From IMG/VR virus record IMGVR_UViG_3300024999_000045, positions 1-64,000 of that record: 64,000 nt of DNA; one strand, written 5' to 3'. The translations under genes were made by a program, and so were the position numbers. The notes under the pieces were generated by a model. The model ran no database searches. It saw only the letters and a program-made list of their open reading frames with translations, and was not told the DNA's origin. Numbering within the stretch: the stretch's first letter is position 1; each line of letters starts with the position of its first letter. This stretch comes from a virus. This document shows positions 1,844 to 63,210 of this stretch, one piece after another.

Positions 1844-2324
1844 AGGCAAATGACTCTAATTTGCTAAAAATATAATAAAATTATAACAATACCAACATAA
1901 ACTATAACATAAAAGGGGAATATATTATGGTAAAAGTAATTTCTTTAATTAATGGTGCTGGATTGACTAAAAATAATACTTATAATGCAATAGATTTTGT
2001 GAAGGGGATAGGTTTAACAGTTATAATTGAGGATAATGATGGTATCGAGCAAAGTTTAAGTCAGGGTAATTATTCAATAATAGAATAGTTATAACAAAAA
2101 TATAATAATAATTAAATAAAGTAATAGTTTTGTTTAAAAATATGAGCGCCTGGAGGGGTTAAAATGCAAGATAAATGGTTAATAGTATTTACAAACGGAA
2201 AAACAGAAATAATGACTCATAAGATGGTTAAGTATTTTACAGATAAGTTTCCATCAATAGTAAAGAGTTGTGGGTTTATAGGTTAAACAAAATGATAATT
2301 ATATTGAGAATGGAGATTGATACT

Positions 2325-2495
2325 ATGAAACGCAGAACATTAAAAAATATGGATAAAGCTACTAAAATGATAGTAGAAAAAGGATATGATTGGAATACAG
2401 CAAATGAGATTGCAATACAATGTTTTGACCGATTAGAGCAAATAAAAAATGGTATGAACGTAGAATGGTTTATTAATAAAATTGCAATAAAATAA
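2325..2495 (+). CDS. Hypothetical phage protein
   Basis: Start moved to ATG 2325 behind GGAG RBS. Confidence 0.6.
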   Translation: MKRRTLKNMDKATKMIVEKGYDWNTANEIAIQCFDRLEQIKNGMNVEWFINKIAIK

Positions 2496-2524
2496 ACATT
2501 TTAAATGAAAAGGAGAGATTAATT

Positions 2525-2830
2525 ATGAATAAAGTAGATATTAGTAAATTAACAAAAATACCTTTTAACAGTAGTCAATCAGATTTAGTTAAATATAATG
2601 GTGAAGATTTTGAAATTATTAGAGAGTTAGACATGGAAACAGAATATGATTTTGAGGGAATATATATGTTTGAGATTAAATTCTCAAATGGAGATATTAT
2701 TCAAGTATTTGATGATGAAATAGTTAAAAACTTCTTTATCTATAATGTTTGTGGAGAACAATTCAATGATGATTTTCTAGCAATAGATGGTGGAGAACAT
2801 ATTTGCCAAAAGTGTTTTGATAATAATTAA
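2525..2830 (+). CDS. Hypothetical protein with C-terminal Cys-pair (zinc-ribbon-like) motifs
   Basis: YNVCGE...ICQKC; AAGGAG RBS. Confidence 0.7.
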   Translation: MNKVDISKLTKIPFNSSQSDLVKYNGEDFEIIRELDMETEYDFEGIYMFEIKFSNGDIIQVFDDEIVKNFFIYNVCGEQFNDDFLAIDGGEHICQKCFDNN

Positions 2831-2869
2831 ATAAAAAATTGATTTTATCAAATAAAAGGAGAGATAAAA

Positions 2870-3286
2870 ATGGAATTTGAAGAAAAAATAATTAAACTAA
2901 CATCAATGAAGCCTAATGGTTTTAAGGAATTTGAAAAATGTGTATATAGTTTATTTGCCGAAGATGAAATATCAATGTCACAAATGAGAGATTGTTATAC
3001 AATAGGTTTTATAGGAAATAATGATAGTCTATATTATGATTGGTATAACAAAACATGGTCAGCAAGTGAAAATATAACAATATACACATCAAAAACTATA
3101 ACAGTAAAATTTATAGGAGCAGACAGTTGGGGCAGAAAAGTATATCAAAACATTGAAAGCAAAAGATTATACAAAGATCCTAAAAGTTTAAATTATTCAG
3201 GTTTACATACAACAGACAGTTTTGAAGGTGAGCCAGATTGTCCATTAAGAGAAGATTTAATTATAAATTATATTGAAGAAGATTAA
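2870..3286 (+). CDS. Hypothetical phage protein
   Basis: AAGGAG RBS; C-terminal SWGRKVY...GEPDCP segment. Confidence 0.75.
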   Translation: MEFEEKIIKLTSMKPNGFKEFEKCVYSLFAEDEISMSQMRDCYTIGFIGNNDSLYYDWYNKTWSASENITIYTSKTITVKFIGADSWGRKVYQNIESKRLYKDPKSLNYSGLHTTDSFEGEPDCPLREDLIINYIEED

Positions 3287-3328
3287 ATGAAAAGACAATT
3301 TTAATTAAAAATTAAAAGGAGATAAAAA

Positions 3329-3523
3329 ATGGATATTATAACAACAGTAAAATGGGTTAATGGGAATGATAGTGCAAATGATTGTATTATAAGATATTGC
3401 AAAGAAAATAATATAGATTTTAGATATAACCATTACTTTAACTTAGAAATATTTATGAGAGGAGAATGGAAAGGCACAGATTATAAATGTAACGGTGAAG
3501 ATATGCAAATATTAATAAAATAA
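3329..3523 (+). CDS. Hypothetical phage protein
   Basis: AAGGAG RBS. Confidence 0.7.
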   Translation: MDIITTVKWVNGNDSANDCIIRYCKENNIDFRYNHYFNLEIFMRGEWKGTDYKCNGEDMQILIK

Positions 3524-3761
3524 TATAATAAAAGGAGAATTATAATGATTAAAATATTAAGGATGAATAATAAAACTTATAAACATTTTTTAACACTAAT
3601 AAATGATGGTATAAATATTATTGGAAATGGCACAAATATTATAGTTGATGAAACATTAAATGATGATGATATAAGAACAGAATACAAAAATATTAATAAT
3701 TTAATACAATAATTAAATAAAAGGACGAATTTATCAAAAAATATAACAATGGAGGTATATT

Positions 3762-4013
3762 ATGAGTAAAATTAAAGTATTTGAGTTTGAAGTGTGCAAT
3801 AGTGCAACATGGGACACAAAGGGATTGAGCCAGGAATGGTTAAAAAGATGTCAAGAAAGATTATTTAATATGAGCGACATAGAAAATACAATTAATGATT
3901 TTTTAAAAGATAAAAAATTAATAGATATTAAGATAAATAATGTAGATGTTAATTATCATAATAATGGTAGAACGAATACTATAAATTTAATATATACAAT
4001 ATTATTTGAATAG
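3762..4013 (+). CDS. Hypothetical phage protein
   Basis: GGAGG RBS. Confidence 0.7.
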   Translation: MSKIKVFEFEVCNSATWDTKGLSQEWLKRCQERLFNMSDIENTINDFLKDKKLIDIKINNVDVNYHNNGRTNTINLIYTILFE

Positions 4014-4056
4014 AATAGATGTTTTACTAAAAGTTATAACAAGAAAGGGTTTAAGT

Positions 4057-4281
4057 ATGACAGTAAGTGAAATTATTAATAAAAAGTATAACAAATACGA
4101 TAAAAAAGATGAAGAAAATAAAAATTATAAAAGAAAATTTAACAATGATCAGATAAGAGAGATAAGAAATATATATGAAAATGAAACTGATAGCATTAGA
4201 GATATTGCAAAAATATATAATGTAAGCCCTGAAACAATTAGCAGAATAATAAATAATAAAAGTTATAAATATGTAGTTTAA
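4057..4281 (+). CDS. Small helix-turn-helix DNA-binding protein
   Basis: SIRDIAKIYNVSPETISRII HTH; start moved to ATG 4057 behind AGAAAGGG. Confidence 0.7.
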   Translation: MTVSEIINKKYNKYDKKDEENKNYKRKFNNDQIREIRNIYENETDSIRDIAKIYNVSPETISRIINNKSYKYVV

Positions 4282-4295
4282 TTTGGAAATATTTG

Positions 4296-4324: not shown

Positions 4325-4698
4325 AAATCTATCTTATAACAGTAAAGGAGTTGAGCTTAATGAAAAACTTAGAACAAATGAAAATATATTACTTAGATAG
4401 ATTGGAAAACCTAAGAATGAAAACAGAAGTGAAGTTAAAATTTGCAGAAATTAATCTATAAATATAATAATATGAGGTGGATTAGATGGGTTACTTTAAA
4501 TTAAAATGTAGTCAATGTGGCAGCACAGATATAGATTTTGGATTAAATAGTAATATAATAGTTTGCAATAGTTGTGGTAAAGGTGATGAAAATGTTGATG
4601 TTGCACTAATTGATACTAGCTGGACAGAGTGGATAGAAGAAGATTAAACAAAATAAGGGTTTGATTGAAATAAAAATATAACGATAGGAGGAATAAAA

Positions 4699-4914
4699 AT
4701 GTTAGAGGATTTTAAAAATGAAATTGATATTGCAATAGGAAAATATGGAAACGATCATATTGATGTAGTAATTGAAGATAATAAAATTTATGGTATGTAT
4801 CATAGCGAAAATGATAGTTTTGGAGTAACAAAAGATTATATTATTAATGTAGCAGCGTATGAAGAGTTAGAAAAGTATTGTAATTTAAGAGATATTGGAC
4901 TTTGTGAAGATTGA
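4699..4914 (+). CDS. Hypothetical phage protein
   Basis: AGGAGG RBS. Confidence 0.7.
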   Translation: MLEDFKNEIDIAIGKYGNDHIDVVIEDNKIYGMYHSENDSFGVTKDYIINVAAYEELEKYCNLRDIGLCED

Positions 4915-5179
4915 ATAAAACAGAAGTTTCGTCTAAAATAAAGTTTGAGTTTAGATTAACCTAAAAATTATAACAGAGGAGGTATAACAGATGGCAAGAT
5001 TTGTATTGGTTTGTGAATGTGATAGTGATGATTTTGAGCATATTAATGATGTAGATAGTTTTGTATGTATGAATTGTGGAAAAGTATATAATGAATCTGA
5101 AGCTGGAACGAATTTATTATATGAAGAAGAGGAATAAAGATTAAATAAATTGAAGATTTTAAATAAAGGAGAATGAAAA

Positions 5180-5524
5180 ATGAAATTTGAAAATGTAAAT
5201 GAGTTAGCAAATGTATTAAGAACAAGAAGTCAGATACCTGGTCAGTATTTTGAAATTGATGATATTGTATTATTTAATGAATCAAACAATGAGGATTTAA
5301 TACATTATCATCAAGAGTATTCAGTTTACTGTTGGCATGGGGATAAAATATTAAAGAAAATCGAATCTATAACAGTAACAATGTACGAGTCAGACGAAGA
5401 ACTTGCAGAACAACTAGATCAGTTTATAAATGAAGAAATGGGATTTATATATGATAAAGAAATGACAATTGAACAGTTTGAGAAGTATAAACAAGATTTT
5501 GAGGAATTTGCTAGAAATTATTAA
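5180..5524 (+). CDS. Hypothetical acidic phage protein
   Basis: AAGGAG RBS. Confidence 0.7.
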   Translation: MKFENVNELANVLRTRSQIPGQYFEIDDIVLFNESNNEDLIHYHQEYSVYCWHGDKILKKIESITVTMYESDEELAEQLDQFINEEMGFIYDKEMTIEQFEKYKQDFEEFARNY

Positions 5525-5576
5525 ACAAAATGAATCTTTCGTTCAAATATTATAACAGATGGGGGGGGGTGAAATA

Positions 5577-6773
5577 ATGAAAAATTATAAAACAATATTA
5601 ATACCTGTAAAATGTTCAAAAGAAGAATTGCATATATTATTTCAATATAATAGATTATCGGCTCAAGTATGGAATTTGTGCTTAGAATTAGATAAAAAAT
5701 ATAAAGAAGAAAACAAAAAACATATATCTAACAATGATTTACAAAAACAAACTAAAAAATGTATAGAACTTCCTGCAAAGTGTATTCATCATGTTGTTCA
5801 TAAGTATTTATTTGCAAGAGATTCAATGTTTAAGAGTATTAAAGCAAAACACAAAAATAGCAACAAAGTTAAATTGCCTTATAGAACAAAAAAATATTTT
5901 ACTACTGGTTGGGATTATCAAAGTATTAAAACAGATTATAACAAAGGACTTATCCAACTTGTAAGACCAAAAATTAAAACTGAAAATGGGATTAAAAGGC
6001 AAGAAAGTATTAAATGTTATTCAAAGAATCTACCACAAAACATTAAAGAAGTTGAACTTATTTGGAGAAATAAATTATATCTAGCAATAAAATATCTCGA
6101 CAATACAGAATATCAACAAATACAATCAAACAATACTTCTGCAATAGATTTAGGTGAAATCCATGCTATAACATCTATTGATAATAATGGTAATGCAATT
6201 ATAATTACTGGAAGAAAACTAAGAAGTATAAAGTATTTAAGAAATAAAAATCAAGCTAGAATATATGAGAAGATGAGCAAATGTACTAAAGGTAGTAAAC
6301 AGTATAAAAAATATATTAGATCATTAGAAAAATTGAGAATTAAAACAGAAAATCATATTAAAGATGGTGTTCATAAAGTTAGTAAACATTATTTAGATTA
6401 TTGCTTAAATAATAATATTAATACAGTTTATTATGGAGATTTAGATAGTTGTACTAGAAATACAAGAAAGAAACACGTTACAAATACAAATGTAAGACAA
6501 AAACTATCTCAATGGAACTATGGCTTGTTAATGCAAATATTAGAAAACAAACTAAAACAATACGGAATTAAATTAATAAAAGTTAAAGAATATTACACGT
6601 CAAAGACCTGTCCTGAATGTGGTTGTTTGAATAAACCAAAGAAAAGAAATTATAAGTGCGATTGTGGGTACACTCAACACAGAGATATTGTTGGAAGTAT
6701 AAACATTCTTAATACGAATAGTAGTTATAGAATTAAAAAGTATAACAATAAAAAGTATCTACAAATTGCTTAG
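5577..6773 (+). CDS. tnpB: TnpB RNA-guided endonuclease (IS200/IS605/IS607 superfamily), rearranged RuvC type
   Basis: RuvC-I SAIDLG, RuvC-II position YYGDL with alternative Glu in VKEYYTSKTC, zinc ribbon CPECG...CDCG, RuvC-III HRDIVGSINI; no tnpA nearby. Confidence 0.9.
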   Translation: MKNYKTILIPVKCSKEELHILFQYNRLSAQVWNLCLELDKKYKEENKKHISNNDLQKQTKKCIELPAKCIHHVVHKYLFARDSMFKSIKAKHKNSNKVKLPYRTKKYFTTGWDYQSIKTDYNKGLIQLVRPKIKTENGIKRQESIKCYSKNLPQNIKEVELIWRNKLYLAIKYLDNTEYQQIQSNNTSAIDLGEIHAITSIDNNGNAIIITGRKLRSIKYLRNKNQARIYEKMSKCTKGSKQYKKYIRSLEKLRIKTENHIKDGVHKVSKHYLDYCLNNNINTVYYGDLDSCTRNTRKKHVTNTNVRQKLSQWNYGLLMQILENKLKQYGIKLIKVKEYYTSKTCPECGCLNKPKKRNYKCDCGYTQHRDIVGSINILNTNSSYRIKKYNNKKYLQIA

Positions 6774-6860: not shown

Positions 6861-7141
6861 TGAATCTTTTATAATTTAAACTTTCAACAAAATAGGGATT
6901 TTACATAACATAAGGAGGATTTAAGATGAACATTATAACAGAACATAAAACATTTAGCCCATATTGGGGCAAGATAGTACAGAAATCTAAGCCTGGTGAA
7001 ATGATTGACTATGTTGTATATAGTGGTAACATTGCATATTCAGGATTAGTAGACAAAGAAGTTGATAAGGAGTTGAGAAAAAGAATTAATATATTGGTTT
7101 AAAATATAAAAATAATAATATGGAAATATATTAAATTTACA

Positions 7142-7957: not shown

Positions 7958-8000
7958 TATTTATTTAAAAGGTGAAATTTATTTAAATTTAGAATAAGGA

Positions 8001-8561: not shown

Positions 8562-8798
8562 ATGAGAAATTTTAATTGGAGTGATAGTATGACTAAAGAT
8601 AAACAAAGACACAATCCTGATAAGCCACAAAATAATTATGGAAGTTGGTGTTCTTATTACGAAGAGTATTCTAACGGTTCAGTAGGTTGCGAAAGAGGTT
8701 TAGATGTATCTGTTTGTAAAGGGAATCCTCATAATTGTATTAAAATTAAATATAAAGAATTAGCATCAAGAAGTGACAGACAAAAAATAGAAGATTGA
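8562..8798 (+). CDS. Hypothetical Cys-containing protein
   Basis: ORF; CKGNPHNCIK motif. Confidence 0.6.
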   Translation: MRNFNWSDSMTKDKQRHNPDKPQNNYGSWCSYYEEYSNGSVGCERGLDVSVCKGNPHNCIKIKYKELASRSDRQKIED

Positions 8799-8834
8799 AT
8801 AAAAAAGATATTTCATTTAGAAAGGAATGATTAA

Positions 8835-9113
8835 ATGAGTTTAAAACATAAAGAGACAATGATATTTTATGATAAAAATAAGGAATATATTGTGTCTATT
8901 AATGATTATTTAAAAGTAAAAGTTAAAGAACATGACAAAATTAAAGTCTTAGATGGATATGTTAGTACAATTGATACATTTGAAAGAGGAATAATAGAAT
9001 TAGAAGAATTTATTGACGGTAAACACAATTTTAAACCTTTCGATTATGGTTGTGTAGAAGAAATTATTGAACACATAAAAGATGGACAAAAGTTAGCAAA
9101 AATATTTAAATGA
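8835..9113 (+). CDS. Hypothetical phage protein
   Basis: AAAGGA RBS. Confidence 0.7.
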   Translation: MSLKHKETMIFYDKNKEYIVSINDYLKVKVKEHDKIKVLDGYVSTIDTFERGIIELEEFIDGKHNFKPFDYGCVEEIIEHIKDGQKLAKIFK

Positions 9114-9143
9114 AACTAAAATTTCACTTAAAGAGAGGACAAT

Positions 9144-9329: not shown

Positions 9330-9613
9330 TTTTGATAAAAAGAATATTTTGTTTTAAGAGCATTTATGATATACTAAATAAAAAAAGAAAAGGGGAAATT
9401 AATATGAAAAAGAAATATGTTTTAGAAATTCAAACGGGGGAATCAATTATGTAATGGAGATATAGACTCCGTAGTATTTTATTTTCTTGAAGAAGAAAAA
9501 AATAAAATGGATATTATTTTGGAAATAGCTATTGAGAATAGTTATAAGACAATGGTGTATCTTGATGATGATATTGAATAAAACGAACATTTTATCTTAA
9601 AAGGAGTGAACAT

Positions 9614-9761: not shown

Positions 9762-9796
9762 ATAAATATAATATATAAAGAAATGAGGTGAAACAG

Positions 9797-10876
9797 ATGT
9801 TGGCAGATCAAAATAATGTAATAGGTTTTAATAGTAAAAGTTTTTATACTGCTCTAAATAGTATTTTAAATGATATAAAAGAAGAATCTGAGAATACTCA
9901 TAAAAATTATCTTGGGACATACAGAAACTTTTTTCAGTTTATTTTAGGCAAAAGTTTAGATAATATAAGCTGGGATGATATAAAAAAAATAGACTTTCCA
10001 ACAATACAAAATTATGTTGATCATTTAAAGAAAAAGAGTAAGCTGCCAACAGTAAAAGCGAAAATTGCTGCATTAAATACTTTATATGACAGACTTCATA
10101 GTTGGGACAATAGCATAAATAAAGAATTATTTGGGCAGCTAAAGAAGATTAAAATAACTAGTCAAATTAAAAAAGAGGGGAGGTATGGGGCATTAACTAT
10201 TAGTGAAGTAAATAAATTATTAAAATTTGCATCAGAGCAAAAGTGTAAAGGAAGAGAAAATTTTGGATTAGAACAAAAGTTATTTTTTGAATTTGCATTA
10301 ACATTAGCAATAAGAAAAGAGTCTATATTATCTCTAAAATGGGAAAATATAATGAAGGTTTTAGATAAAAACAGTGGAGAAGAAGTTTGGGTTGTTTATG
10401 GATATGAAAAGAGAAAAGATATAGAAAAAGCTATAAATGAAGACTTTTTTAATAGATTAAGTGAATTGAAAAATAAAGAAACAAAACAAACAGATTATGT
10501 ATTTAATATATGTGAGCAAACATTAAGAAAAACTTTAAAAGACTTTTGTGCCGAAAATGGAATTGGAGAAAATAGAAAAATAAAGATTCATAGTTTAAAA
10601 AAGACTTCAGGTGATAGAACGTTTGATATGACTGGTGGAAACATTAAACTAACAGCAGATCAACTTCAACACTCAGACATTAATACAACATACAATGATT
10701 ACTTAGGTCAAAATATGAGCTATACAGAGCAACCAAGCTTCTTTCTAAACTTTGATGAAGTAAATGCCATAGACACAATTAAACTAGATGAATACACCAA
10801 AGAACAGTTAATAGAAGCTATAAGCAAATGTAATAAAAATATCATAAACCAAATATGTAAGAATATTGAAAAATAA
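9797..10876 (+). CDS. Tyrosine recombinase family protein (SPbeta YopP/SroD-like position)
   Basis: SAM-like N domain; LAIRKESIL (Arg), IHSLKK (HxxK instead of HxxR), LQHSDINTTYNDY (His, Tyr). Confidence 0.85.
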   Translation: MLADQNNVIGFNSKSFYTALNSILNDIKEESENTHKNYLGTYRNFFQFILGKSLDNISWDDIKKIDFPTIQNYVDHLKKKSKLPTVKAKIAALNTLYDRLHSWDNSINKELFGQLKKIKITSQIKKEGRYGALTISEVNKLLKFASEQKCKGRENFGLEQKLFFEFALTLAIRKESILSLKWENIMKVLDKNSGEEVWVVYGYEKRKDIEKAINEDFFNRLSELKNKETKQTDYVFNICEQTLRKTLKDFCAENGIGENRKIKIHSLKKTSGDRTFDMTGGNIKLTADQLQHSDINTTYNDYLGQNMSYTEQPSFFLNFDEVNAIDTIKLDEYTKEQLIEAISKCNKNIINQICKNIEK

Positions 10877-10977: not shown

Positions 10978-12273
10978 ATGAGAGCAGAAAGAGAAAAGTT
11001 AGAAGAAAAATTGAATATTGTTTTAGAAGAAATATATAGAGATAAAAATATTATTACAAAAGTAACAGATGAATTATTATCAAAAGGTATATTTAGTGTA
11101 AAAAAAATATTAGATAAAAGAGTTCCTTTAAAAGTTTTAGATGAAAAATTACTAGGTTTATTAACATTAGAAATATATAAACACACGCAAAAAGAATTAA
11201 TTAAACCTTCATTATTCTTTACTGAAACAGAAATAAAAGAATCTTCTGTTTATGAATTAAAAAGTAACAACAAAAGCAGCAACGGATATCCAATAGTTCT
11301 GAAGAATGTTAATAAATTATATGACGATCATTATACTACAACCTTAACGATAAAAGAACTTGTTGAATTATATAGAAATACAATGATAATTTATAATTAT
11401 GAAACACAAAGAAATACTAGAATTAAAAGCAACGGAATGGAGGAAATTAATGTTAATCCTATTTCTGTTGAAGAAATAAAAAATGCTATTCTAACTGGTA
11501 AATTTATATCAAATACAGTAACTTTAAATCTATTTCAAGATGGCGAAGATGTTTTTGAATATTCAGACGAAACCAATAAGATTAAAATAATAGCAGGCGA
11601 GCTAAATATTGTAGATGGATTTCATCGATCATTAGGAATGATAGCTGCTTATAGAGAGAACCCAAATTTAGATTTTATAACTGAAATTAGATTTACTAAT
11701 TTTAATATAGATAAAGCTAGAAGACTTATTGTTCAAGAGGATAAACAAAATAAAATTGATAAAAAGTATATCAAATCTCTTAATACAGAAAATTTAGAAA
11801 ATATAGTTGTTAAGAGAATTAATGAGAGTGACGAATCTGAATTACAAGGCAAAATAACAACGAATGCAAAACTTATAACACTGAATAAAGCACTAGTTCT
11901 GCAAGATATAATGTCTAATGCAATAAAATATAACTTTGAATTTAAAGCGAAACGAGATGTTGATGTAGTGTCAAAATATTTAATTGAATTTTTTAATGAA
12001 TTAATTGGAATTTATCATAAAGAATTTGTCGATGAGTTAGAAAGTTATAAAAAAATTAGTGTTATAAATAATCCGAATATTTTCGCTGGTTATATAGCAT
12101 TAGCAAAAAAAATACAGAATAATAAAAATTGGAAAGAAGAGTTAGAAACGACAATGAAAAAAATTGACTTCAGTGTTCATAATCAAGAGTGGAACACAAC
12201 AGGAATATTTAATAAAAAATTAAACAAAGGCAATATCAACACAATTTCAGAATATTTTACAAGAAAATTATAA
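10978..12273 (+). CDS. DGQHR/DndB-like (ParB-fold) protein, SPbeta YopQ/SroE-like
   Basis: NIVDGFHR motif; NYETQR...; lies between two recombinase-fold genes as yopQ does. Confidence 0.75.
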   Translation: MRAEREKLEEKLNIVLEEIYRDKNIITKVTDELLSKGIFSVKKILDKRVPLKVLDEKLLGLLTLEIYKHTQKELIKPSLFFTETEIKESSVYELKSNNKSSNGYPIVLKNVNKLYDDHYTTTLTIKELVELYRNTMIIYNYETQRNTRIKSNGMEEINVNPISVEEIKNAILTGKFISNTVTLNLFQDGEDVFEYSDETNKIKIIAGELNIVDGFHRSLGMIAAYRENPNLDFITEIRFTNFNIDKARRLIVQEDKQNKIDKKYIKSLNTENLENIVVKRINESDESELQGKITTNAKLITLNKALVLQDIMSNAIKYNFEFKAKRDVDVVSKYLIEFFNELIGIYHKEFVDELESYKKISVINNPNIFAGYIALAKKIQNNKNWKEELETTMKKIDFSVHNQEWNTTGIFNKKLNKGNINTISEYFTRKL

Positions 12274-12294: not shown

Positions 12295-13233
12295 ATGGAA
12301 AGAAACTTATATAATGAAGAATTTAAGAAAAAGTTTGTGAATGCACAATATACTGGTAGAACAAATGATTATTACATTTATGTATTATCATTAGCAAGTA
12401 AAATAGAAGAAAATTTTGGGAAAGATTTGTATGAATTTAATGATGAAGAATATGATATTTTGCTTAGCAATATTAAAACAAATAGTTTAAATTCATTAAT
12501 TAGCATTAATATAATATATTCAAAATACGTTGAGTTTGCTATGTCAGAAGGCCTTGTTAAACACAGAATTAATTATCCGTCGCTAGTAAATCCACAAGAT
12601 TTAAAAACATATGTAGGTAAAATAGTAAAAGAAAAAAGATATATTAATACAAGAGAAGATTTTGAAATAGTAATAGGTCTTTTATATAATCCACAAGATA
12701 GAGCATTGTTTGGATTGTTATACGAAGGAGTAAAAGGTGCAAATGGTATTGAAGAATTACAGAACTTAAAGAAAACTGATTGTAATATAACAAACAATAC
12801 ATTAACCTTAACGAGAGATAATGGGACACAAAGACAAGTAGTGGTATCAGAGTATACAATGGAACTTATTCAAGAAGCAATTGAAGATAATGAATATTAT
12901 AAAAACAATGGGGACGGCGATCATTTAAGAAACCCATTTACTCCTCTTGCTCAAACTGAATATGTGTTAAGACCTTCTGGGATTAAAAAAATAAATAAGG
13001 TAACTCAACAAGGCATAATTAGAAGAATTAATAACTTGAAAGAATGGTTTGATTATCCATTTATATCTATAACTAATATTTGGGTTAGTGGACAGATAGC
13101 TGCATCAAAAAATAAAAAAGAAGAATTAGGAAGAGAATTGTCAAGACAAGAGTATATTGAGATAGCGGAGAAATTTGGCTTTGGGGAAGCATATTGGTTT
13201 AATATTAAGCGAAGCGTGATAGATTATATATAG
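12295..13233 (+). CDS. Catalytically degenerate tyrosine-recombinase-fold repressor, SPbeta MrpR/YopR/SroF-like
   Basis: YNEEFKKKF...KDLYEF N-terminus, NPQDRALFGLLYEGV without catalytic Arg, ITNIWVSG without HxxR; matches my recollection of YopR layout. Confidence 0.75.
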   Translation: MERNLYNEEFKKKFVNAQYTGRTNDYYIYVLSLASKIEENFGKDLYEFNDEEYDILLSNIKTNSLNSLISINIIYSKYVEFAMSEGLVKHRINYPSLVNPQDLKTYVGKIVKEKRYINTREDFEIVIGLLYNPQDRALFGLLYEGVKGANGIEELQNLKKTDCNITNNTLTLTRDNGTQRQVVVSEYTMELIQEAIEDNEYYKNNGDGDHLRNPFTPLAQTEYVLRPSGIKKINKVTQQGIIRRINNLKEWFDYPFISITNIWVSGQIAASKNKKEELGRELSRQEYIEIAEKFGFGEAYWFNIKRSVIDYI

Positions 13234-13334: not shown

Positions 13335-13357
13335 GAGAGGTGGAGGCGATAATACAG

Positions 13358-14071
13358 ATGATATTAAACACTATAATATGTGATGATATGCTAGGTCAAA
13401 TTGATTTAATACAAATTTACATTGAAAATATGAATATACCCAATGTCAAAGTAGTCAAAACAATTACTGATGGGTCAAAATTAATAGAAACTTGTAAAGA
13501 ATTGAAACCAGGTTTAATTATTTTAGATATAGAACTTCATGAATATGGAGAATATAACGGAATGGATTTAGCTAAAAAAATATACGAATTTGATAAAGAT
13601 GTTTCGTTTATTTTTATAACAGCACATAAAGATTTTTCAATTGAATCTTATAAGGTTAGAGCTGTAGATTTTATAGTAAAACCGTTTCAATCAGATAGGT
13701 TGAAGGAATCTATTGAATTTATAATCAATAAAAGGGGATATAACAATAAATGGTTTAATAATAGAATAGATGTTGTTTCTAGCGGTACGATATATAAAAT
13801 AGATTTTAATAATATAATATTTATAGAAGCGTTAAATCGTAAAATAGTAATACATACTATAGAAGAGGAAATTGAAGTTAATGATACTTTAGATAATATA
13901 TTATCAATGTTAAATCCTATAAAGTTTAAAAGGTCTCAAAAATCATTTATTGTTAATATAGATAAAATAAAGAAAATAAAAGGAGGCAATAGTAAACATT
14001 CTTCAAAAATAATTTACTTTTGTAATTATCAAAAAACTGCATATCTTGGTGAAAAATATGATATTTTGTAG
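13358..14071 (+). CDS. LytTR-family (AgrA-like) response regulator
   Basis: Receiver: ICDD, IILDIEL (phospho-Asp), FITAH, FIVKPF; LytTR: IIFIEA...FKRSQKSFIVNI. Confidence 0.9.
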   Translation: MILNTIICDDMLGQIDLIQIYIENMNIPNVKVVKTITDGSKLIETCKELKPGLIILDIELHEYGEYNGMDLAKKIYEFDKDVSFIFITAHKDFSIESYKVRAVDFIVKPFQSDRLKESIEFIINKRGYNNKWFNNRIDVVSSGTIYKIDFNNIIFIEALNRKIVIHTIEEEIEVNDTLDNILSMLNPIKFKRSQKSFIVNIDKIKKIKGGNSKHSSKIIYFCNYQKTAYLGEKYDIL

Positions 14072-17059: not shown

Positions 17060-17077
17060 AGAGGTGGTTAAATTAAA

Positions 17078-18853: not shown

Positions 18854-18888
18854 ATAAAAATAAGATTTCGTTGAAAAGGGGAATAAAT

Positions 18889-19296: not shown

Positions 19297-19328
19297 AATA
19301 ACGATTTGACTTGAAAATGGAGGATAAA

Positions 19329-19616: not shown

Positions 19617-19652
19617 AGCAGCAATTTTATTAAAAAGGAAGAGGAATAGAAG

Positions 19653-50196: not shown

Positions 50197-53100
50197 ATGA
50201 TATATAATAATTACCATAAACATGACCATTATTCAAATACTAGAACACCAGATGTTATAGTAAAACCAGAAGATTATATTAGTAGGCTATTAGAATTAGG
50301 TCATACACATTATTTTACAACTAATCACGGTTGTAGTGGAAATGTTTTTGAAGCTTATGATTTATGTAAGAAAAATGATTTGAAAATGGTTTATGGTATG
50401 GAAATGTATTATGTTGATGATAGATTTGAAAAAAACAGAAAAAACTTTCATATAATTGTAATCGGACTAACTAAAAATGCTTATTATCATATAAATAGAA
50501 TATCCTCAGAAGCTAATAAAACAGGTTTTTATTATCACCCAAGAGTAGACAGAGAATTATTATTAAGTTTACCTAAAGATGAAGTAATAATTACAACAGC
50601 ATGTATAAATAATAGAATATTTGGTGGTGAAAACGGCATTGAAGAGTTTTTAATTCCACTAAAAGAACATTTTAACAATAATTTTTTATTAGAAGTTCAA
50701 AATCACAATCACCAAATCCAAATTGAATGGAATAAAAAAATATTAGAATTATCAAAAAAATATTCAATTTCAATTATACATGGAAATGATTCACATTATA
50801 TTTATCCTGAACAATCTAAAGATAGAGTAGAATTTTTAAAAGGAAAAGGTATGAATTATGGAGATGAAGATTCTTTTATTTTAGATTTTCCAAATTATGA
50901 AACAATATTAAATAGATATAAAAATCAAGGAGTTTTAAATGATGAACAAATTTACCAATCTTTAGAAAATACTTTAATTTTTGATAAAGCTGAGGATTTA
51001 AATTTTACAAAAGAAATAAAAATGCCAACTATATATCCAAATTTAACACCACATGAAAGACTTTTAAAACTTAAAGACATAATAGTTGATAAATGGAATA
51101 AAGAATCTAAAAACATTCCAATAAATGAACACAAAAAGTATAAAGAAGCAATAAAATTTGAAATGAAGATATTAAAAGAAACAAATGAAGTTAAAACATC
51201 AGATTATTTTCTGATTAATGAAAAAATAATAGATATTGGTGTAAATAAATACGACGGAATTCTAACAAGGACGGGTCGTGGATGTTTTACAGAAGATGCA
51301 CTTGTTCACACAAAAAATACATTGAAATCAATCAAAGATATTAAAATTGGTGATGAAGTTATTACAAAAGATGGTAAATTTAATAAAGTAATAAATACTA
51401 TGGCGTATGACGTAAATGAAAAGTTAATTCAAATTAAACATTTATATGGTACTGATAAATATTATCCTACAATATGTACTTCAGACCACAAAATTTTAAT
51501 AAATAGAAATGGGAAAGTAGAATGGATTGCTGCCAAAAACATTATAAAATCAGATTTTGTATGTGTTCCAAAAATAAAAAGTCAATCAATATTGCCAGGG
51601 TATATTGATTTAAATAATTATAATATTTTTGGTTATGAATTTGATGAAAAATATATATATGAATATTCACCATATATTAATAATGAATATACATATTCTC
51701 CTACGGAAGTTTCTAGAACAATAGGAGTAGGAAAAAGTGTTTTTGAAAAATTTGCTAATGGAGATAAAAATGTTTTGACTAATAAAAAATATTGGGCAAG
51801 AGAAAAATTTTTTGAATTATTTCCTTTTAATACACAAGAAGATTATGTTAAATATATAAAACAGAAAAGAACGAAAAAAATTAATCGTTATATCAAATTA
51901 GATAAAACATTTAATCAATTTATAGGTTTAATGTACGGAGATGGATTTGCACCAAAAAATAGACCTTATACAATTGGATTAGCTATAAATAATACAACTA
52001 AAAAAGATGAAATTAACAGAAAAATATTTTTTGAGATTGCATATAAATTTAATATTGATGTTTATGAAAATAAAAGTAAAATAAAAAAATTATCTCAATT
52101 AACAATAAATTCAAATATTATTTCGAGATTTATTAGAGCTGATTTGTTTATATCTCAACAAAATAAAGAGAAACAATTTAATAATAAGTGGTTTAATCAA
52201 GATAAAAATAATTTGATTGGAATAATCGAGGGTTTAAGATTTTCCGATGGAAGTTTTCCATGTGAAAATCAAACAGATAGACGAATAAATTTTGATAATA
52301 CTTCTAAATCAATAGTGAATGCTTATAAAATTTTATGTTTAATGACAGATGAAGGTATTAACAGTCTAAATGTAAGACCTTCATGGTTAGATAAAAGTAA
52401 TTATAAATGTAAAGAAAGTTATAAATTAAGAATTAATAAAAATTCAGATGATGCAAAAAAAATAACAGAAAGAACTTTTCAAGATGATAATTATTGGTAT
52501 CTACCAATAAAAGAGGTTGTATTTTTACCAAAGCAAAAGACAAAAGTTTATGATATAACGGTTGAAAATGAACATAATTATCTATTAAATAATATGATAG
52601 TACATAATTCGGCAGTATCTTTTTATATTAATAAACTCTTAGGATTTACTGAAGTAGATAGATTAAAAGCAGATGTTCCATTATATCCAACAAGGTTTAT
52701 GAGTGTTTCAAGAGTTCTTGGTACTAAGTCAATGCCCGATATAGATTTTAACACTGCAAACCCTGAACCATTTATTAAAGCAAGTAAAGATGTTTTAGGT
52801 GAAGACGGCGTTTATTATATGATTGCTTATGGTACTATGAAAGAGTCTGGTGCTTTTAGAAATCTTTGTAGGGCTAGAGGTATGGAAGTTCAAGAATATA
52901 ATGAGGTAGCAAAAGATTTAGAAAAATATATAAATGACTCAAAATGGAAAGATTTAATAGAAGAATCCAAAAAATTTATAGGTGTTATTGATTCGATTTC
53001 ACCCTCTCCTTGTAGCTTTTTATTATTAGATAAACCAATATCTAAAGAAATAGGTTTAATAAGAGTAGGGAATGAAATATGTTGTTGTATAGATGGATAT

Positions 53101-54642
53101 ACATCAGATGTATGGAAGTTTTTGAAAAATGATATTTTAACTGTTAGTGTTTGGGATATAATTTCTAAGACATATAAATTGTTAAATAAACCAATACCAA
53201 ATATAGAAGAATTAAAAATGCAATTAAATGATGATGTTTGGGAATTATATAAGAATAAAATAACTGCAACAATGAACCAAGTTAATACTGAATGGGCGAC
53301 TAATTTAGTAAGTAAATATTCACCAAAGTCTGTTGCAGAGTTAACAGCATATGTTGCTGCCATTCGTCCTTCATTCTCTTCTTTATTAAATGGTTTCTTA
53401 AATAGAGAAGAATATTCTACGGGAACACCAGAGCTAGATGAATTATTAGAATCTTCATTTAATTATCTTTTATATCAAGAAAATTTGATGCAATATTTTA
53501 CTTGGTTAGGAATAGAAGAAGATATAACTTATGATTTGATTAAAAAAATTGCAAAAAAGAAGTTAGATGAAAAAGAATTAGTTAAATTAGAAAAAGTTTT
53601 ACATAAAAATTGGATAGATAAAATAGGCAATGACGATAAATTTAAAGAAACTTGGCAAGTAATACAAAACAGTGCAGAATATGGGTTTAATGCAAGTCAT
53701 GCATTATCAGTAGCATTAGATAGTTTATATGGTGCAAATTTAAAAGCTAAATATCCATTAGAATATTATACTGTAATATTAAATATGTATGAAACCAATA
53801 CAGAAGAAACTGCTAAAATATTGTCTGAATTAAAATATTTTAATATTGAATTAAAAAACATTCAGTTTGGTAAGTCAAGGTCAGAATATTCATTTAATAA
53901 AGAATTAAATACAATTCACAAAAGTATATCTTCTATAAAATTCCTTAACGCAAAAATAGCAGATGAGTTATTTGAATTATCAAAAGAATATAAATATAAT
54001 AACTTTATAGAATTATTAAAAGATATAAAAGAAAAAACTAGTGTGAATTCAAGACAATTAAAAATACTAACTGGATTAAACTTTTTTAGTGAATTTGGTA
54101 AAAATAAAAAGTTACTTGAAATAACTGAATTGTTTGAAAATTTTTATGAAAGAAAACAGATTAAAATAAATGAGATTGAAAAATTACAGATAGATTTAAA
54201 TGTTTTAGAACGTTGTAGTAATAAACAAACTGAAAAATTATATAAAGAATTAGATATGGAAAAATATTTAAAAATTGTGATTAAAGATATTGAAGATAAA
54301 GCACTTTCGATTAAAGATGAAGTAAAATTTCAAATGGAATATCTTGAATATACTGAATATACCAATGAAAAAATTGAAAGTAATATGTATATTGTTATAG
54401 AACATAAGACTTTTCAGGATAAAAGTAAACCATATATAACTTTAAAACAAATTAAAACTGGTCTAGAAATAAAGACTAAGGTAAAAAATTCTAAATTATT
54501 TATTGAAAATCAATTTAAATTATTTGATATTTTAAAAATTGATAAGTTTAAAATTCAAAAGAAGAAAAAAAATATTGGTGGAAATAATTGGGTTGAAACC
54601 GATGAAGATGAACAAATTTTAGATATATGGGAGGTGTTTTAG
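50197..54642 (+). CDS. dnaE: DNA polymerase III alpha subunit (DnaE) containing an intein
   Basis: PHP domain HKHDHYS...TTNHG, GRG|S, MPDIDFN, YLLYQE, YGFNASHA. Confidence 0.93.
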   Translation: MIYNNYHKHDHYSNTRTPDVIVKPEDYISRLLELGHTHYFTTNHGCSGNVFEAYDLCKKNDLKMVYGMEMYYVDDRFEKNRKNFHIIVIGLTKNAYYHINRISSEANKTGFYYHPRVDRELLLSLPKDEVIITTACINNRIFGGENGIEEFLIPLKEHFNNNFLLEVQNHNHQIQIEWNKKILELSKKYSISIIHGNDSHYIYPEQSKDRVEFLKGKGMNYGDEDSFILDFPNYETILNRYKNQGVLNDEQIYQSLENTLIFDKAEDLNFTKEIKMPTIYPNLTPHERLLKLKDIIVDKWNKESKNIPINEHKKYKEAIKFEMKILKETNEVKTSDYFLINEKIIDIGVNKYDGILTRTGRGCFTEDALVHTKNTLKSIKDIKIGDEVITKDGKFNKVINTMAYDVNEKLIQIKHLYGTDKYYPTICTSDHKILINRNGKVEWIAAKNIIKSDFVCVPKIKSQSILPGYIDLNNYNIFGYEFDEKYIYEYSPYINNEYTYSPTEVSRTIGVGKSVFEKFANGDKNVLTNKKYWAREKFFELFPFNTQEDYVKYIKQKRTKKINRYIKLDKTFNQFIGLMYGDGFAPKNRPYTIGLAINNTTKKDEINRKIFFEIAYKFNIDVYENKSKIKKLSQLTINSNIISRFIRADLFISQQNKEKQFNNKWFNQDKNNLIGIIEGLRFSDGSFPCENQTDRRINFDNTSKSIVNAYKILCLMTDEGINSLNVRPSWLDKSNYKCKESYKLRINKNSDDAKKITERTFQDDNYWYLPIKEVVFLPKQKTKVYDITVENEHNYLLNNMIVHNSAVSFYINKLLGFTEVDRLKADVPLYPTRFMSVSRVLGTKSMPDIDFNTANPEPFIKASKDVLGEDGVYYMIAYGTMKESGAFRNLCRARGMEVQEYNEVAKDLEKYINDSKWKDLIEESKKFIGVIDSISPSPCSFLLLDKPISKEIGLIRVGNEICCCIDGYTSDVWKFLKNDILTVSVWDIISKTYKLLNKPIPNIEELKMQLNDDVWELYKNKITATMNQVNTEWATNLVSKYSPKSVAELTAYVAAIRPSFSSLLNGFLNREEYSTGTPELDELLESSFNYLLYQENLMQYFTWLGIEEDITYDLIKKIAKKKLDEKELVKLEKVLHKNWIDKIGNDDKFKETWQVIQNSAEYGFNASHALSVALDSLYGANLKAKYPLEYYTVILNMYETNTEETAKILSELKYFNIELKNIQFGKSRSEYSFNKELNTIHKSISSIKFLNAKIADELFELSKEYKYNNFIELLKDIKEKTSVNSRQLKILTGLNFFSEFGKNKKLLEITELFENFYERKQIKINEIEKLQIDLNVLERCSNKQTEKLYKELDMEKYLKIVIKDIEDKALSIKDEVKFQMEYLEYTEYTNEKIESNMYIVIEHKTFQDKSKPYITLKQIKTGLEIKTKVKNSKLFIENQFKLFDILKIDKFKIQKKKKNIGGNNWVETDEDEQILDIWEVF
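51283..52608 (+). mobile_element. Intein with LAGLIDADG homing endonuclease in DnaE (442 aa)
   Basis: Cys1 CFTEDALV after TGRG; ends IVHN before Ser+1; FIGLMYGDG and IEGLRFSDG motifs. Confidence 0.92.
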
Positions 54643-57986: not shown

Positions 57987-58175
57987 ATGAAGCAAAATTC
58001 ACCAATACTAATTGCACAGTTAGAAAACGCAAATGCGAGCATAAATTTAGCACTTTCTGAAATCAAGAATGTAGTGGTACCAAGGGTTACAGGGTTCGAA
58101 TATTTAGATAAAATCACCATTTTATTGAAACACTCAGAAAATGTCATAAATAACGTCATAGAGCAATTAAAATAA
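57987..58175 (+). CDS. Hypothetical protein
   Basis: AAGGAGG RBS. Confidence 0.65.
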   Translation: MKQNSPILIAQLENANASINLALSEIKNVVVPRVTGFEYLDKITILLKHSENVINNVIEQLK

Positions 58176-60829: not shown

Positions 60830-60858
60830 ATATAATTATAATAACAAAGGAGAATATA

Positions 60859-61422
60859 ATGAGAAAATTTGAAATAGCAAAAGGTTTTGAAGACCAAAAT
60901 ATCAATATTCCTACTAGAGCAACAAAAAACTCAGCAGGTTATGATTTTGAATGTGCAGAAGATATAATTATACCGTCTTATTTTGAGTTGATTAATGATT
61001 ATAATGATATTTTTAATAGTGGAGATATGTTAGAAATGATAACAGCTTCTTCATTACGAGATTATTTAGAAGGATTAGAAGAAAAACGAAAAAGCTTTAA
61101 TATAAAGCCCACTCTTGTAAAAACAGGCATTAAGGTACTTATGGGTAGTGATGAAGGTTTATATTTATATAATAGATCAGGTAACCCTTTGAAAAAAGGA
61201 TTAGTATTGGCAAACGGGGTTGGTATTATAGATTCCGACTATTATAACAACTCCGATAATGATGGACATATAATGTTTCAATTTTATAATTTTTCTCCTG
61301 AAGAGGTTGTTATTAATAAAGGAGAACGTATTGGACAAGGAGTTTTTCAAAAATTCTTATCAGTAGACAATGATAATGCAGACGGCGAGAGAACTAGTGG
61401 TTTTGGAAGTACAGGAATTTAA
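60859..61422 (+). CDS. dut: Trimeric dUTPase
   Basis: SAGYD, NRSG, GIIDSDY, ERIGQG, RTSGFGSTG. Confidence 0.93.
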   Translation: MRKFEIAKGFEDQNINIPTRATKNSAGYDFECAEDIIIPSYFELINDYNDIFNSGDMLEMITASSLRDYLEGLEEKRKSFNIKPTLVKTGIKVLMGSDEGLYLYNRSGNPLKKGLVLANGVGIIDSDYYNNSDNDGHIMFQFYNFSPEEVVINKGERIGQGVFQKFLSVDNDNADGERTSGFGSTGI

Positions 61423-61544
61423 ATAAAACACAAATTTTAAATAAAGTCGGGTGTATGCATAGGGTGTAGACTATAATACGGGTGGCATACAAAAATAATA
61501 GTGTTGGCAGCTATTCATATTAAAAATAGAAATGAGGAATCTAA

Positions 61545-61778
61545 ATGTTCCAAAAAGGTGATAGATTTAAGTTTCCAACTGGAGTTATTCATGAAGTGAT
61601 TACCGTTTCTACAAAGAAAGGTAAAAACTTATATGGATTTATAGACTTTAAACATCTCATACCAGAAGAAGATTTGATGACATATAAACAGATAATTTAT
61701 AATCAAGCAGACATAAAAGCTATTAATAAAGACAGTCAACCCAAGAAAAAACGTAGACGACGAACAATCAAAAAATAA
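61545..61778 (+). CDS. Hypothetical basic protein
   Basis: GAGG RBS; KKRRRR tail. Confidence 0.6.
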   Translation: MFQKGDRFKFPTGVIHEVITVSTKKGKNLYGFIDFKHLIPEEDLMTYKQIIYNQADIKAINKDSQPKKKRRRRTIKK

Positions 61779-61838
61779 AGTAATTCACGTCATTGACAAG
61801 ACAAAATATTTAGTATATAATATAAACATAATAACAAT
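61772..61838 (+). promoter_or_regulatory. Duplicated promoter/operator element, copy 2
   Basis: 29-bp identity with 35119-35147; TTGACA 61793-61798, TATAAT 61816-61821, ataaacataat. Confidence 0.85.
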
Positions 61839-61940
61839 TACATTAAATTCTAAATCCAAGGTGTGAATATGACAGATAAAATAAATATATTTAAAACCAA
61901 CACATTCTACATACAAGAGCAACTTAAATGGAGGAATAAC

Positions 61941-62192
61941 ATGAAAATAGTAAATCAGATGGAAAATTACACAAAATCAGAAATACTTAATAATATTCAA
62001 GGTAAAATGCATCAAAAAGAATTTAACAATTTAATTCTAAATGGCGAGAATAAAAAAGACAATAGTACAGAATTAAAACAAGAGCATTTGATCCTAAATA
62101 ATGTAAGAATGAACATTAAACAAAATTATACTCCTTGTGCTAACTGGCAAGTAGCTAAACAAACAGGATTAAATCTTAATCTAAAGGTGTAA
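61941..62192 (+). CDS. Hypothetical phage protein
   Basis: GGAGG RBS before ATG 61941. Confidence 0.6.
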   Translation: MKIVNQMENYTKSEILNNIQGKMHQKEFNNLILNGENKKDNSTELKQEHLILNNVRMNIKQNYTPCANWQVAKQTGLNLNLKV

Positions 62193-62194
62193 TT

Positions 62195-62419
62195 ATGGAT
62201 AATATGGCAAATAGAGATAAGTTTATTCAAGGTATTAAAACATTAGAAGTAGATAAACTTTTAACATATCCAAAACAAATAAGAATGAATAGCAGAACAT
62301 TTAGTAAAATTACTGGAATAACTAATCATTATACTGACGCAAATGGATTAATAGGTAATTACTGGACAATTAAAGTATATATTGATGATAGTGTTAAAGG
62401 TTATAATTTTGTATTTTAA
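62195..62419 (+). CDS. Hypothetical phage protein
   Basis: AAGGTG RBS. Confidence 0.6.
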   Translation: MDNMANRDKFIQGIKTLEVDKLLTYPKQIRMNSRTFSKITGITNHYTDANGLIGNYWTIKVYIDDSVKGYNFVF

Positions 62420-62624
62420 TATAAACATAATATGAGGTGTTAATATGTTATTTAGCATTTTTAAATCAGACAAAGAAAAAATATTACGAAAAGCAAGCAA
62501 GAATTGGGATTATTGGGATAGAAAAGTTAGAGAATATAATGAATTAGCTGATAATGCAGTACAAAAAAGACATGAATGTGGTGATATAATGGATAACTAT
62601 TATAAAAGTGGCAGGAGGTAAACA

Positions 62625-62939
62625 ATGATAAAGATAAACTATAAAGAAGTAACAGTAGAAAAAATCTTACAAACAATAAATAAATATTGCTTGCATAATT
62701 ATGTAACAGTGGCAGAACAAATACATAAATTATATACAGGAAATGAAAAAGAAATAGAAAGCATAGAGATAGACATACCACATTACAAACATAGAATATA
62801 TATTTATAAAGAACATGAAAATGAAATAGATTTTGGTATCGAAAAAATGAATGAAGAAAACGAAGCCTATGGAATGAGTTTTACTAAAGAAGAAGCAAAG
62901 GAACTAGCAAACAATATATTAAAAATGTGTGGTGAGTAG
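62625..62939 (+). CDS. Hypothetical phage protein
   Basis: AGGAGG RBS. Confidence 0.65.
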   Translation: MIKINYKEVTVEKILQTINKYCLHNYVTVAEQIHKLYTGNEKEIESIEIDIPHYKHRIYIYKEHENEIDFGIEKMNEENEAYGMSFTKEEAKELANNILKMCGE

Positions 62940-62941
62940 AT

Positions 62942-63139
62942 ATGGAAAAGGAAAAAAGTTTGGCACTATTAGATAAATGTATTAATGAATTACGTAATAT
63001 GACACAGGAAAAATTTGATGAAAAAGATTTTAAAGTACAAGAAATGGCGCAAATAAAAGAACGTGTAGAAAACTTAGAAGAAGAATTATATAAATTAAAA
63101 GTTGGCGTTAAAGAGTTTGCGCGTATGCTTGAAAATTAA
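62942..63139 (+). CDS. Hypothetical coiled-coil protein
   Basis: ORF coupled to upstream gene. Confidence 0.6.
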   Translation: MEKEKSLALLDKCINELRNMTQEKFDEKDFKVQEMAQIKERVENLEEELYKLKVGVKEFARMLEN

Positions 63140-63210
63140 AAAATATAACTAAAATATGAATTTTATTTAAAAACAAAAATATAACAACCGATTAAAAGGA
63201 GGAAACAAAA

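Follow-up and report, generated by a model that had tools for sequence, protein, structure and literature searches.

The window analysed here comprises the first 64,000 nucleotides (64 kb) of the single-contig virus record IMGVR_UViG_3300024999_000045 (130,449 bp in total, 26% G+C), and the element under study is a 26-bp AT-rich palindrome that recurs along it. Up to about 80 kb the genes lie on the + strand and beyond that point on the - strand, and their content is that of a large SPbeta-like phage. A block of three genes (9788-10876, 10978-12273 and 12295-13233) is syntenic with SPbeta yopP-yopQ-yopR. Other genes in the window encode a LytTR response regulator, ClpX, an intein-containing DnaE polymerase, a RecD2-like helicase, ribonucleotide reductase and a Dcm methylase, and a SprA-like serine integrase lies outside the window at genome 77869-79497. 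The nearest recorded phages were Clostridium phage c-st (DnaE 54% identity), Geobacillus phage E3 and the phiCD211 group. No close relatives were recovered by exact 29-mer search of genome, viral and metagenome contigs, by related-locus searches with the MrpR-like protein and the helicase, or by megablast against phage records; the best relatives in IMG/VR had a helicase identity of at most 65%.

The palindrome consists of two 10-bp inverted arms around a 6-nt centre. With up to three mismatches allowed, the consensus TTAAATAAAA-N6-TTTTATTTAA was matched 35 times in the window, compared with 1.11 matches expected (100 shuffles, maximum 4). A position weight matrix (PWM), built from the consensus matches, iterated and applied at a cut-off of at least 12 bits, identified 69 copies genome-wide, of which 48 lie in the window, compared with approximately 1.7 in block-shuffled sequence. 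These values agree with a preliminary description of the window, which had counted about 46 copies and proposed a matrix-based comparison with shuffled sequence. It had also reported a spacer of invariant length and variable sequence, and this was borne out on both counts. The genome contains 53 matches with a spacer of 6 nt and 0-13 at any other length between 0 and 14 nt, and the spacer sequence differs at all 69 of the 69 sites. Half of the spacers start with T and end with A, extending the dyad by one pair.

The recurrence of the palindrome at gene junctions was confirmed. Almost all + strand sites (57/60) were located at junctions, as expected from the placement between stop codon and ribosome-binding site (RBS) given in the preliminary description. 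Viewed from the junctions, 57 of 144 on the + strand carry a site, as do 28 of the 37 with gaps of 30-45 nt. The TAA that ends the upstream gene starts at motif position 2 (17 cases) or 6 (14 cases), and at 31 of the 57 junction sites this stop codon falls within the left arm, a placement of the stoperator type. On the other side, the right arm directly abuts the RBS in most copies, and the start codon follows the motif mostly after 10-31 nt and often after just 10-18 nt. Copies extend past the window to approximately 71 kb and are rare in the - strand late half of the genome. Three blocks had been described as free of the palindrome. This is the case for the radical-SAM operon, where no copy reached the PWM cut-off, but not strictly for the other two: the 9.7-18.8 kb block contains a single moderate site, overlapping the ClpX start, and the 41.7-61.4 kb replication block a single strong one. 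The preliminary description knew of no account of this motif, and searches of the literature likewise found none; a paper of possible relevance, Brady et al. (2023, Cell Host Microbe), lay outside those searches. The individual copies are listed below with the other features discussed.

Table 1. Palindrome copies, second-motif examples and candidate reader proteins in the window (PWM scores in bits)
Feature	Position	Strand	Score or similarity	Remark
Palindrome	440-465	.	13.5	Outside the range of the preliminary description
Palindrome	2112-2137	.	20.0	
Palindrome	2283-2308	.	16.1	
Palindrome	2483-2508	.	14.7	Right arm weak
Palindrome	2827-2852	.	20.1	
Palindrome	3283-3308	.	18.7	
Palindrome	3713-3738	.	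21.2	
Palindrome	4006-4031	.	17.5	
Palindrome	4644-4669	.	23.4	
Palindrome	4911-4936	.	21.2	
Palindrome	5141-5166	.	18.7	
Palindrome	5521-5546	.	19.4	
Palindrome	6883-6908	.	19.7	
Palindrome	7961-7986	.	14.5	
Palindrome	8795-8820	.	18.4	
Palindrome	9106-9131	.	20.1	
Palindrome	9331-9356	.	14.9	Off any called junction
Palindrome	9574-9599	.	21.2	
Palindrome	17069-17094	.	16.3	Moderate, over ClpX start codon; may be chance
Palindrome	18850-18875	.	20.8	
Palindrome	19289-19314	.	19.4	
Palindrome	19609-19634	.	12.0	Weak
Palindrome	20006-20031	.	21.4	
Palindrome	20361-20386	.	21.3	Next ATG inside right arm
Palindrome	20537-20562	.	17.2	
Palindrome	20837-20862	.	16.2	
Palindrome	21283-21308	.	16.9	Followed by ATAAATATAAT
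Palindrome	24111-24136	.	23.4	Followed by ATAAATATAAT
Palindrome	25258-25283	.	22.0	Abuts RBS
Palindrome	25462-25487	.	20.6	Abuts RBS
Palindrome	25861-25886	.	19.6	
Palindrome	26233-26258	.	16.6	
Palindrome	28110-28135	.	21.3	
Palindrome	28807-28832	.	22.1	
Palindrome	29494-29519	.	20.2	
Palindrome	30069-30094	.	20.1	
Palindrome	30601-30626	.	24.3	Top score
Palindrome	31466-31491	.	18.2	Followed by ATAAATATAAT
Palindrome	32464-32489	.	20.8	
Palindrome	33033-33058	.	15.4	
Palindrome	33478-33503	.	20.9	Followed by ATAAATATAAT
Palindrome	35089-35114	.	22.9	5' of promoter-like TTGACA-N17-TATAAT
Palindrome	36056-36081	.	20.6	
Palindrome	38902-38927	.	21.6	
Palindrome	40575-40600	.	18.9	
Palindrome	58104-58129	.	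22.9	Strong; RecD2-like helicase/ribonucleotide reductase junction; ~45-nt repeated element 5'
Palindrome	61419-61444	.	17.9	
Palindrome	63145-63170	.	16.4	
ATAAAYATAAY examples	9762, 21368, 24139, 31494, 35140-35160, 44185, 50160, 61822			
YopP/SroD-like tyrosine-recombinase-fold protein	9788-10876	+	Pfam Phage_integrase 1.5e-10; 26% identity to SPbeta YopP	Candidate reader; YopP clade
YopQ/SroE-like DndB (DGQHR) family protein	10978-12273	+	30% identity to SPbeta YopQ; phrog_5732	Candidate reader
MrpR/YopR/SroF-like recombinase-fold master repressor	12295-13233	+	Pfam MrpR_N_CB 9e-15, MrpR_C_cat; PDB 8a0a, 8bj6, 9rd5	Unlikely reader

The substitutions across the 69 sites were used to distinguish a site in DNA from a structure in RNA. 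Over the ten arm pairs there were 130 non-pairing combinations and 4 compensated double changes, and changes in both arms occurred at or below the frequency expected from independence. The spectrum of substitutions was the same in the left arm and in the complement of the right arm: T>C at position 6 in 7 and 9 cases respectively and A>G at position 7 in 5 and 11, with A>G at position 4 likewise tolerated and no variation at position 9 in either arm. Changes compatible with an RNA stem, as G.U pairs, numbered 14, compared with 18 stem-breaking changes of the A.C type, and predicted RNA folding energies had a median of -1.1 kcal/mol and were 0.0 in 10 of the 69 sites. Because the arms do not co-vary, accept equal substitutions and fold unstably, the palindrome is a double-stranded DNA site read symmetrically and not a hairpin; the pattern is that expected of a homodimer reading two identical half-sites.

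The preliminary description had offered RNA-processing hairpins as an alternative. A hairpin acting in polycistronic early mRNA, through processing, stability or translational coupling, would suit sites that lie between stop codon and RBS and always in transcribed + strand regions, but the lack of compensatory change, the absence of any preference for G.U over A.C and the weak folds bring this explanation close to refutation. Nor does the palindrome resemble an intrinsic terminator, for which a U-tract is expected, its 3' flank being A-rich, or an attC-type site, since its sequence is conserved and the pairing of its arms is not.

A promoter element, for instance an activator box that replaces the -35 and drives middle transcription of each downstream gene, is scarcely more probable than the hairpin. 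At about 12 sites a TATAAT-like ATAAATATAAT is found 3-14 nt past the motif, which would put the dyad centre near -33. However, the motif is symmetric whereas the genes all run one way, and because the right arm meets the RBS with the start codon 10-18 nt away, too near for a -10 element and a start of transcription to fit in, the palindrome is not a promoter for most genes.

A second motif, ATAAAYATAAY (extended tAaAAtATAAAyATAATAa), was strongly strand-specific, the coding strand having 43 copies and the opposite strand 6, compared with 5.4 per strand in shuffled sequence. In the early and late halves of the genome alike, it is located directly after promoter-like TTGACA-N17-TATAAT sequences or just before an RBS; about eight copies lie 3-14 or 56-68 nt past a palindrome. 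Its placement and asymmetry suggest that it may be either an analogue of SPBRE, the MrpR/SroF box of SPbeta, or a 5' leader element.

A further repeated element, of approximately 45 nt (...GTAGTCGTACCAAGGGTTACGGGGTTCG...), occurs in three copies directly 5' of palindromes (window 58050-58103; genome 81700-81745 and 108105-108150). Its GGGTTCG portion recalls a tRNA T-arm; no tRNA was predicted in the window by ARAGORN.

The palindrome is conserved among SPbeta-like phages. In SPbeta itself, the core ATAAAA-N6-TTTTAT was found in 13 exact copies against 0.3 expected, with 0-1 at other spacers, and the PWM of the present phage returned 17 sites of at least 12 bits against 0.5 expected; overall, SPbeta carries approximately 26-38 copies. 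Enrichment of the core was confined to the 6-nt spacer, which accounted for 17/17 exact matches in Geobacillus phage E3, 18/20 in Bacillus phage Sophrita, 9/9 in Psychrobacillus phage Perkons, 10/12 in a Staphylococcus SPbeta-like phage and 13/17 in Clostridium phage c-st. Phages phi3T, SPR and Goe14 contained 12-14 exact core copies each, again with enrichment at the 6-nt spacer alone. The Clostridium difficile phages phiCD211 (LN681537.2) and LIBA2945 (MF547663.1) had a variant, TTAAAA-N6-TTTTAA, in 12 and 11 copies respectively against 0.9 expected. Neither form is present in Lactococcus phage 949 (Lc949) or Brevibacillus phage Sundance. The palindromes of SPbeta and phi3T are the same, including orthologous copies with identical spacers. 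One orthologous pair (SPbeta 99497-99514, phi3T 89339-89356) has reverse-complemented spacers (TGATAA and TTATCA), with about 15 nt of flank inverted as well. Site-specific inversion was rejected as its cause in favour of a small inversion within a longer hairpin-like repeat, probably by template switching.

A TnpB-type gene lies among the accessory genes of the window (5559-6773; Pfam OrfB_IS605 and a Cas12f1-like TNB domain); homologues are present in phage E3, in c-st and in the phiCD211 group. The DnaE-type polymerase (50197-54642) contains an intein (Intein_splicing and Hint domains) at residues ~360-804.

Homology breakpoints were analysed within the SPbeta family (SPbeta, phi3T, SPR and Goe14) only, and the results apply to that family rather than to the lineage of the present phage. 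Breakpoints occurred at 68-74% of palindrome junctions and at 30-38% of other junctions (odds ratio 4-6, p 1e-3 to 1e-5), and the enrichment persisted for gaps of at least 25 nt. Approximately 15% of all breakpoints were within 30 nt of a site, compared with 1.7% of random positions. Homology coming from the left ended at +6 to +17 from the dyad centre and homology from the right started at -7 to -15, which places both limits at the far edge of the palindrome. At 52 of 57 breakpoint palindromes the entire site, spacer included, was inherited with one flank, and because both phages then share all of it, the break lies outside it. The downstream flank kept the palindrome in 40 cases, the upstream flank in 17; travelling with the downstream gene in this way fits an element that serves the gene behind it. 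Roughly 30 non-homologous segments separated each pair of phages, of which 0-2 had a palindrome at both ends and 19-29 at neither.

These results bear directly on the mechanism put forward in the preliminary description, in which the palindromes are crossover sites where the recombinase-fold protein at 9788-10876 excises, shuffles or acquires gene cassettes, as happens in integrons or pdif modules. The tyrosine-recombinase-like geometry of 10-bp inverted arms, a 6-nt centre and a strict gap is as described, a recombinase-fold gene lies nearby, and breaks in the SPbeta family do coincide with the palindrome, although at its outer edge and not in the spacer, where they had been predicted. Cre, FLP, Xer and lambda-type recombinases require identical overlap regions for strand exchange, and the 69 spacers here are all different. 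The candidate enzyme reads R...HxxK...H...Y (AIRKE...IHSLKK...QHS...TTYNDY): the Arg, His, Tyr and HxxK that had been noted are present, but the full R-K-H-R-H/W-Y active site is not, Arg II being replaced by Lys, as it is in SPbeta YopP. Together with the intact spacers at breakpoints, the few two-ended segments, arms that lack attC-like co-variation and a distribution of recombinase clades, that of YopP included, none of which follows that of the motif, this makes cassette recombination at these sites very improbable. The cassette interpretation as a whole is thus partly supported, in its geometry and its coincidence with module boundaries but not in its mechanism.

Alternatively, the palindrome could be a linker, kept mainly because it allows co-infecting or resident SPbeta-like phages to exchange modules through short shared homology, for example by a phage Sak4-type annealing protein, with protein binding secondary. 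It would then resemble the promoter-early stem-loop cassettes of T4-type phages in its action. The enrichment of breakpoints at palindrome junctions, exactly at the edge of the site, and the concentration of sites in variable accessory regions point in this direction. However, a plain patch of homology needs no dyad, no fixed 6-nt gap and no equal degeneracy of its arms; the break falls outside the palindrome, 70-85% of breakpoints have no site and two-ended segments are rare. Selection for 'evolvability' alone would also be a weak force for keeping the motif across phages of Bacillus and Clostridium, and we consider the linker explanation rather unlikely.

The three proteins of the yopP-yopQ-yopR-like block were examined as possible readers of the site. 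The YopP-like protein belongs to the sro repression operon, and it is improbable as an active recombinase. YopP-type proteins, including this one and that of SPbeta, may, like MrpR, act by binding DNA and not as enzymes. The YopQ-like protein itself scored below the threshold of all Pfam and NCBIfam models, but PF14072 DndB was detected in 24 of 46 homologues (29-48% identity), and relatives encoded by other phages bear the annotation DGQHR or DNA-sulfur-modification protein. The binding site of DndB is a bipartite palindrome of 18 bp, TACG-N10-CGTA (PMC4507180). For SroE, the counterpart of YopQ in the sro operon, a preprint gives the function of a second repressor whose role is left unsettled (bioRxiv 10.1101/2025.11.27.690993). 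Because its homologues carry DndB and SroE has been so described, the ParB/DndB-fold protein at 10978 was kept as a possible, putative reader. A second, more canonical tyrosine recombinase of Xer type is encoded on the - strand at genome 95881-96933 (Pfam Phage_integrase 1e-21, XerC/XerD models); its clade, that of SPbeta YomM, is found in all 11 large phages compared, including the motif-less ones.

The third protein, the MrpR/SroF-like repressor, had been suggested as the one for which the palindromes serve as operators. Its family is present in all nine of the nine motif-bearing phages and absent from Lc949, and the published box of SroF has the same length of 26 bp and many A-tracts. However, when MrpR was mapped in SPbeta by chromatin affinity purification sequencing (ChAP-seq), all 10 peaks fell at SPBRE (PMC10516654), in a genome with about 26-38 palindromes. 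As derived from the SPbeta sequence, SPBRE is an asymmetric element (tAGACAAAtAC-AAAwAATATGTATAt) within sigmaA-type promoters and is unrelated to the palindrome, which is symmetric and lies mostly outside promoters. The SroF of phi3T binds an asymmetric 26-bp box as a monomer, and this box differs from that of SPbeta (bioRxiv 10.1101/2025.11.27.690993), while the palindrome is the same in both phages. Sundance, moreover, has an MrpR-like gene and no motif, and ATAAAYATAAY fits an SPBRE analogue better. The repressor is therefore very doubtful as the reader, its published boxes being other, asymmetric sequences. Directly 3' of the MrpR-like gene lies a complete LytTR response regulator with receiver and LytTR domains (13340-14071).

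The explanation that we tentatively favour, at somewhat below an even chance, is a dispersed operator- or roadblock-type site, comparable to the stoperators of mycobacteriophage L5 or the KorB operators of plasmid RK2, read by a putative homodimer and marking off small early or accessory units on their 5' side. Each unit would consist of palindrome, RBS and open reading frame (ORF) in that order. The reader, occupying roughly 50-70 junctions, would keep the early accessory genes silent or insulated, and the genes that must run in the lysogen, those of the sro/repressor block, have no such site. With the same sequence of 18-26 bp present at many junctions, the sites also provide a common seam for the exchange of modules between related phages, which would proceed by ordinary or relaxed homologous recombination rather than by site-specific strand exchange.

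Several observations weigh against this operator-type explanation or against a reader encoded in the sro operon. In a phyletic profile of every ORF of 11 phages, no gene family tracked the presence of the motif exactly. The YopQ-like gene is missing from Sophrita and phiCD211, both of which bear the motif, and the YopP-clade gene is missing from the motif-bearing c-st and phiCD211 group and present in the motif-less Lc949 and Sundance; the MrpR family likewise extends to Sundance. Between SPbeta and phi3T, the identity of YopP is 33%, of YopQ 38% and of YopR 30% despite the common palindromes, which argues against an sro-encoded reader. The SPbeta palindromes are not significantly near MrpR-bound SPBRE promoters (5/12 within 300 bp, chance 21%). 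The replication operon is also nearly free of sites, and the sparing of lysogen-expressed genes does not explain this. Finally, regulation is one of several possible roles for a symmetric DNA site.

Some of the same observations would be accounted for by a host factor, a conserved nucleoid-associated or transcription protein of Bacillota that reads pairs of A-tracts and T-tracts one helical turn apart and that the phages exploit. The motif is common to phages of Bacillus, Geobacillus, Psychrobacillus, Staphylococcus and Clostridium without a perfectly co-occurring phage family; SPbeta and phi3T have the same sites in the same host with divergent sro proteins; and the C. difficile phages have a variant of their own while the Lactococcus phage has no motif. 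On the other hand, we know of no Bacillota regulator with this consensus. ComK boxes are AAAA-N5-TTTT, and CodY and ARG boxes also differ from the palindrome; likeness to ComK, ARG, CodY, dif and UP-element sequences was set aside, their spacing or orientation being different. A host protein as reader is a serious possibility, even if the specific proposal of a nucleoid or transcription factor is, like the linker, on the unlikely side. In order of preference, the candidate readers would be some other phage or host protein, then the SroE/YopQ-like protein and then the SroD/YopP-like protein.

If a dimeric protein is responsible, the palindromes may form a second, family-wide operator system beside MrpR and SPBRE, ranging from phages of Bacillus to those of Clostridium, through which accessory genes would be silenced or insulated globally and whose sites would also define the units of exchange. 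We regard this broader proposal as unlikely. SroE/YopQ, the DndB/ParB-fold 'second repressor', would be its most testable candidate reader.

Comparison with other dispersed elements showed partial likenesses. The stoperators of cluster A mycobacteriophages, the L5 gp71 sites reportedly described by Brown and co-workers in 1997, are tens of short, scattered repressor-type sites in very short intergenic gaps, often over stop codons, and spare lysogen-expressed genes. They are 13-bp asymmetric sites in one orientation to transcription, with the immunity repressor as reader, whereas the palindrome is a 26-bp dyad conserved across heteroimmune phages and host genera and its reader is putative. The promoter-early stem-loop (PeSL) cassettes of T4-type phages, reportedly described by Arbiol and co-workers in 2010, similarly place a repeated regulatory sequence 5' of small accessory genes in hyperplastic regions and at points of module swapping; these contain a sigma-70 early promoter and a true stem-loop, whereas the palindrome is no promoter for most genes and no hairpin at all. 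The dif/pdif and attC sites share inverted arms around a 6-nt centre and a position flanking accessory genes. However, dif/pdif sites need matching centres, attC sites a conserved fold, and both an active recombinase, whereas the palindrome has differing spacers, no covariation, a candidate enzyme without Arg II and breaks outside the site.

Within the same phage family, SPBRE and phi3TRE (PMC10516654; bioRxiv 10.1101/2025.11.27.690993) are likewise repeated AT-rich intergenic elements of about 26 bp with a recombinase-fold protein nearby. They are asymmetric, located in sigmaA-type promoters, present in about 10-13 copies, phage-specific and read by a monomer, in contrast to the symmetric palindrome with its 26-69 copies and family-wide distribution. 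The operators of KorB (ParB family) in RK2 and the boxes of DndB are palindromes spread over a replicon for a ParB- or DndB-fold regulator, and the DndB box TACG-N10-CGTA (PMC4507180) has the same 18-bp bipartite outline as ATAAAA-N6-TTTTAT with a different sequence. They differ in number, with 12 sites for KorB, 2 for DndB and about 70 for the palindrome, and the YopQ-like reader is putative here, its gene missing from two motif-bearing phages.

SPbeta and phi3T are model phages of arbitrium signalling, and their SroD/SroE/SroF repression system is under active study, with the DNA targets of SroE and SroD apparently still undefined (bioRxiv 10.1101/2025.11.27.690993). A conserved and abundant motif that is not SPBRE and that punctuates the early genes provides these studies with a concrete sequence. 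The present case also illustrates that the shape of a recombinase target alone does not make a recombinase site. For the wider group, the palindrome is a marker of module boundaries in large and widespread temperate Bacillota phages, a number of them with genes for toxins or other accessory functions.

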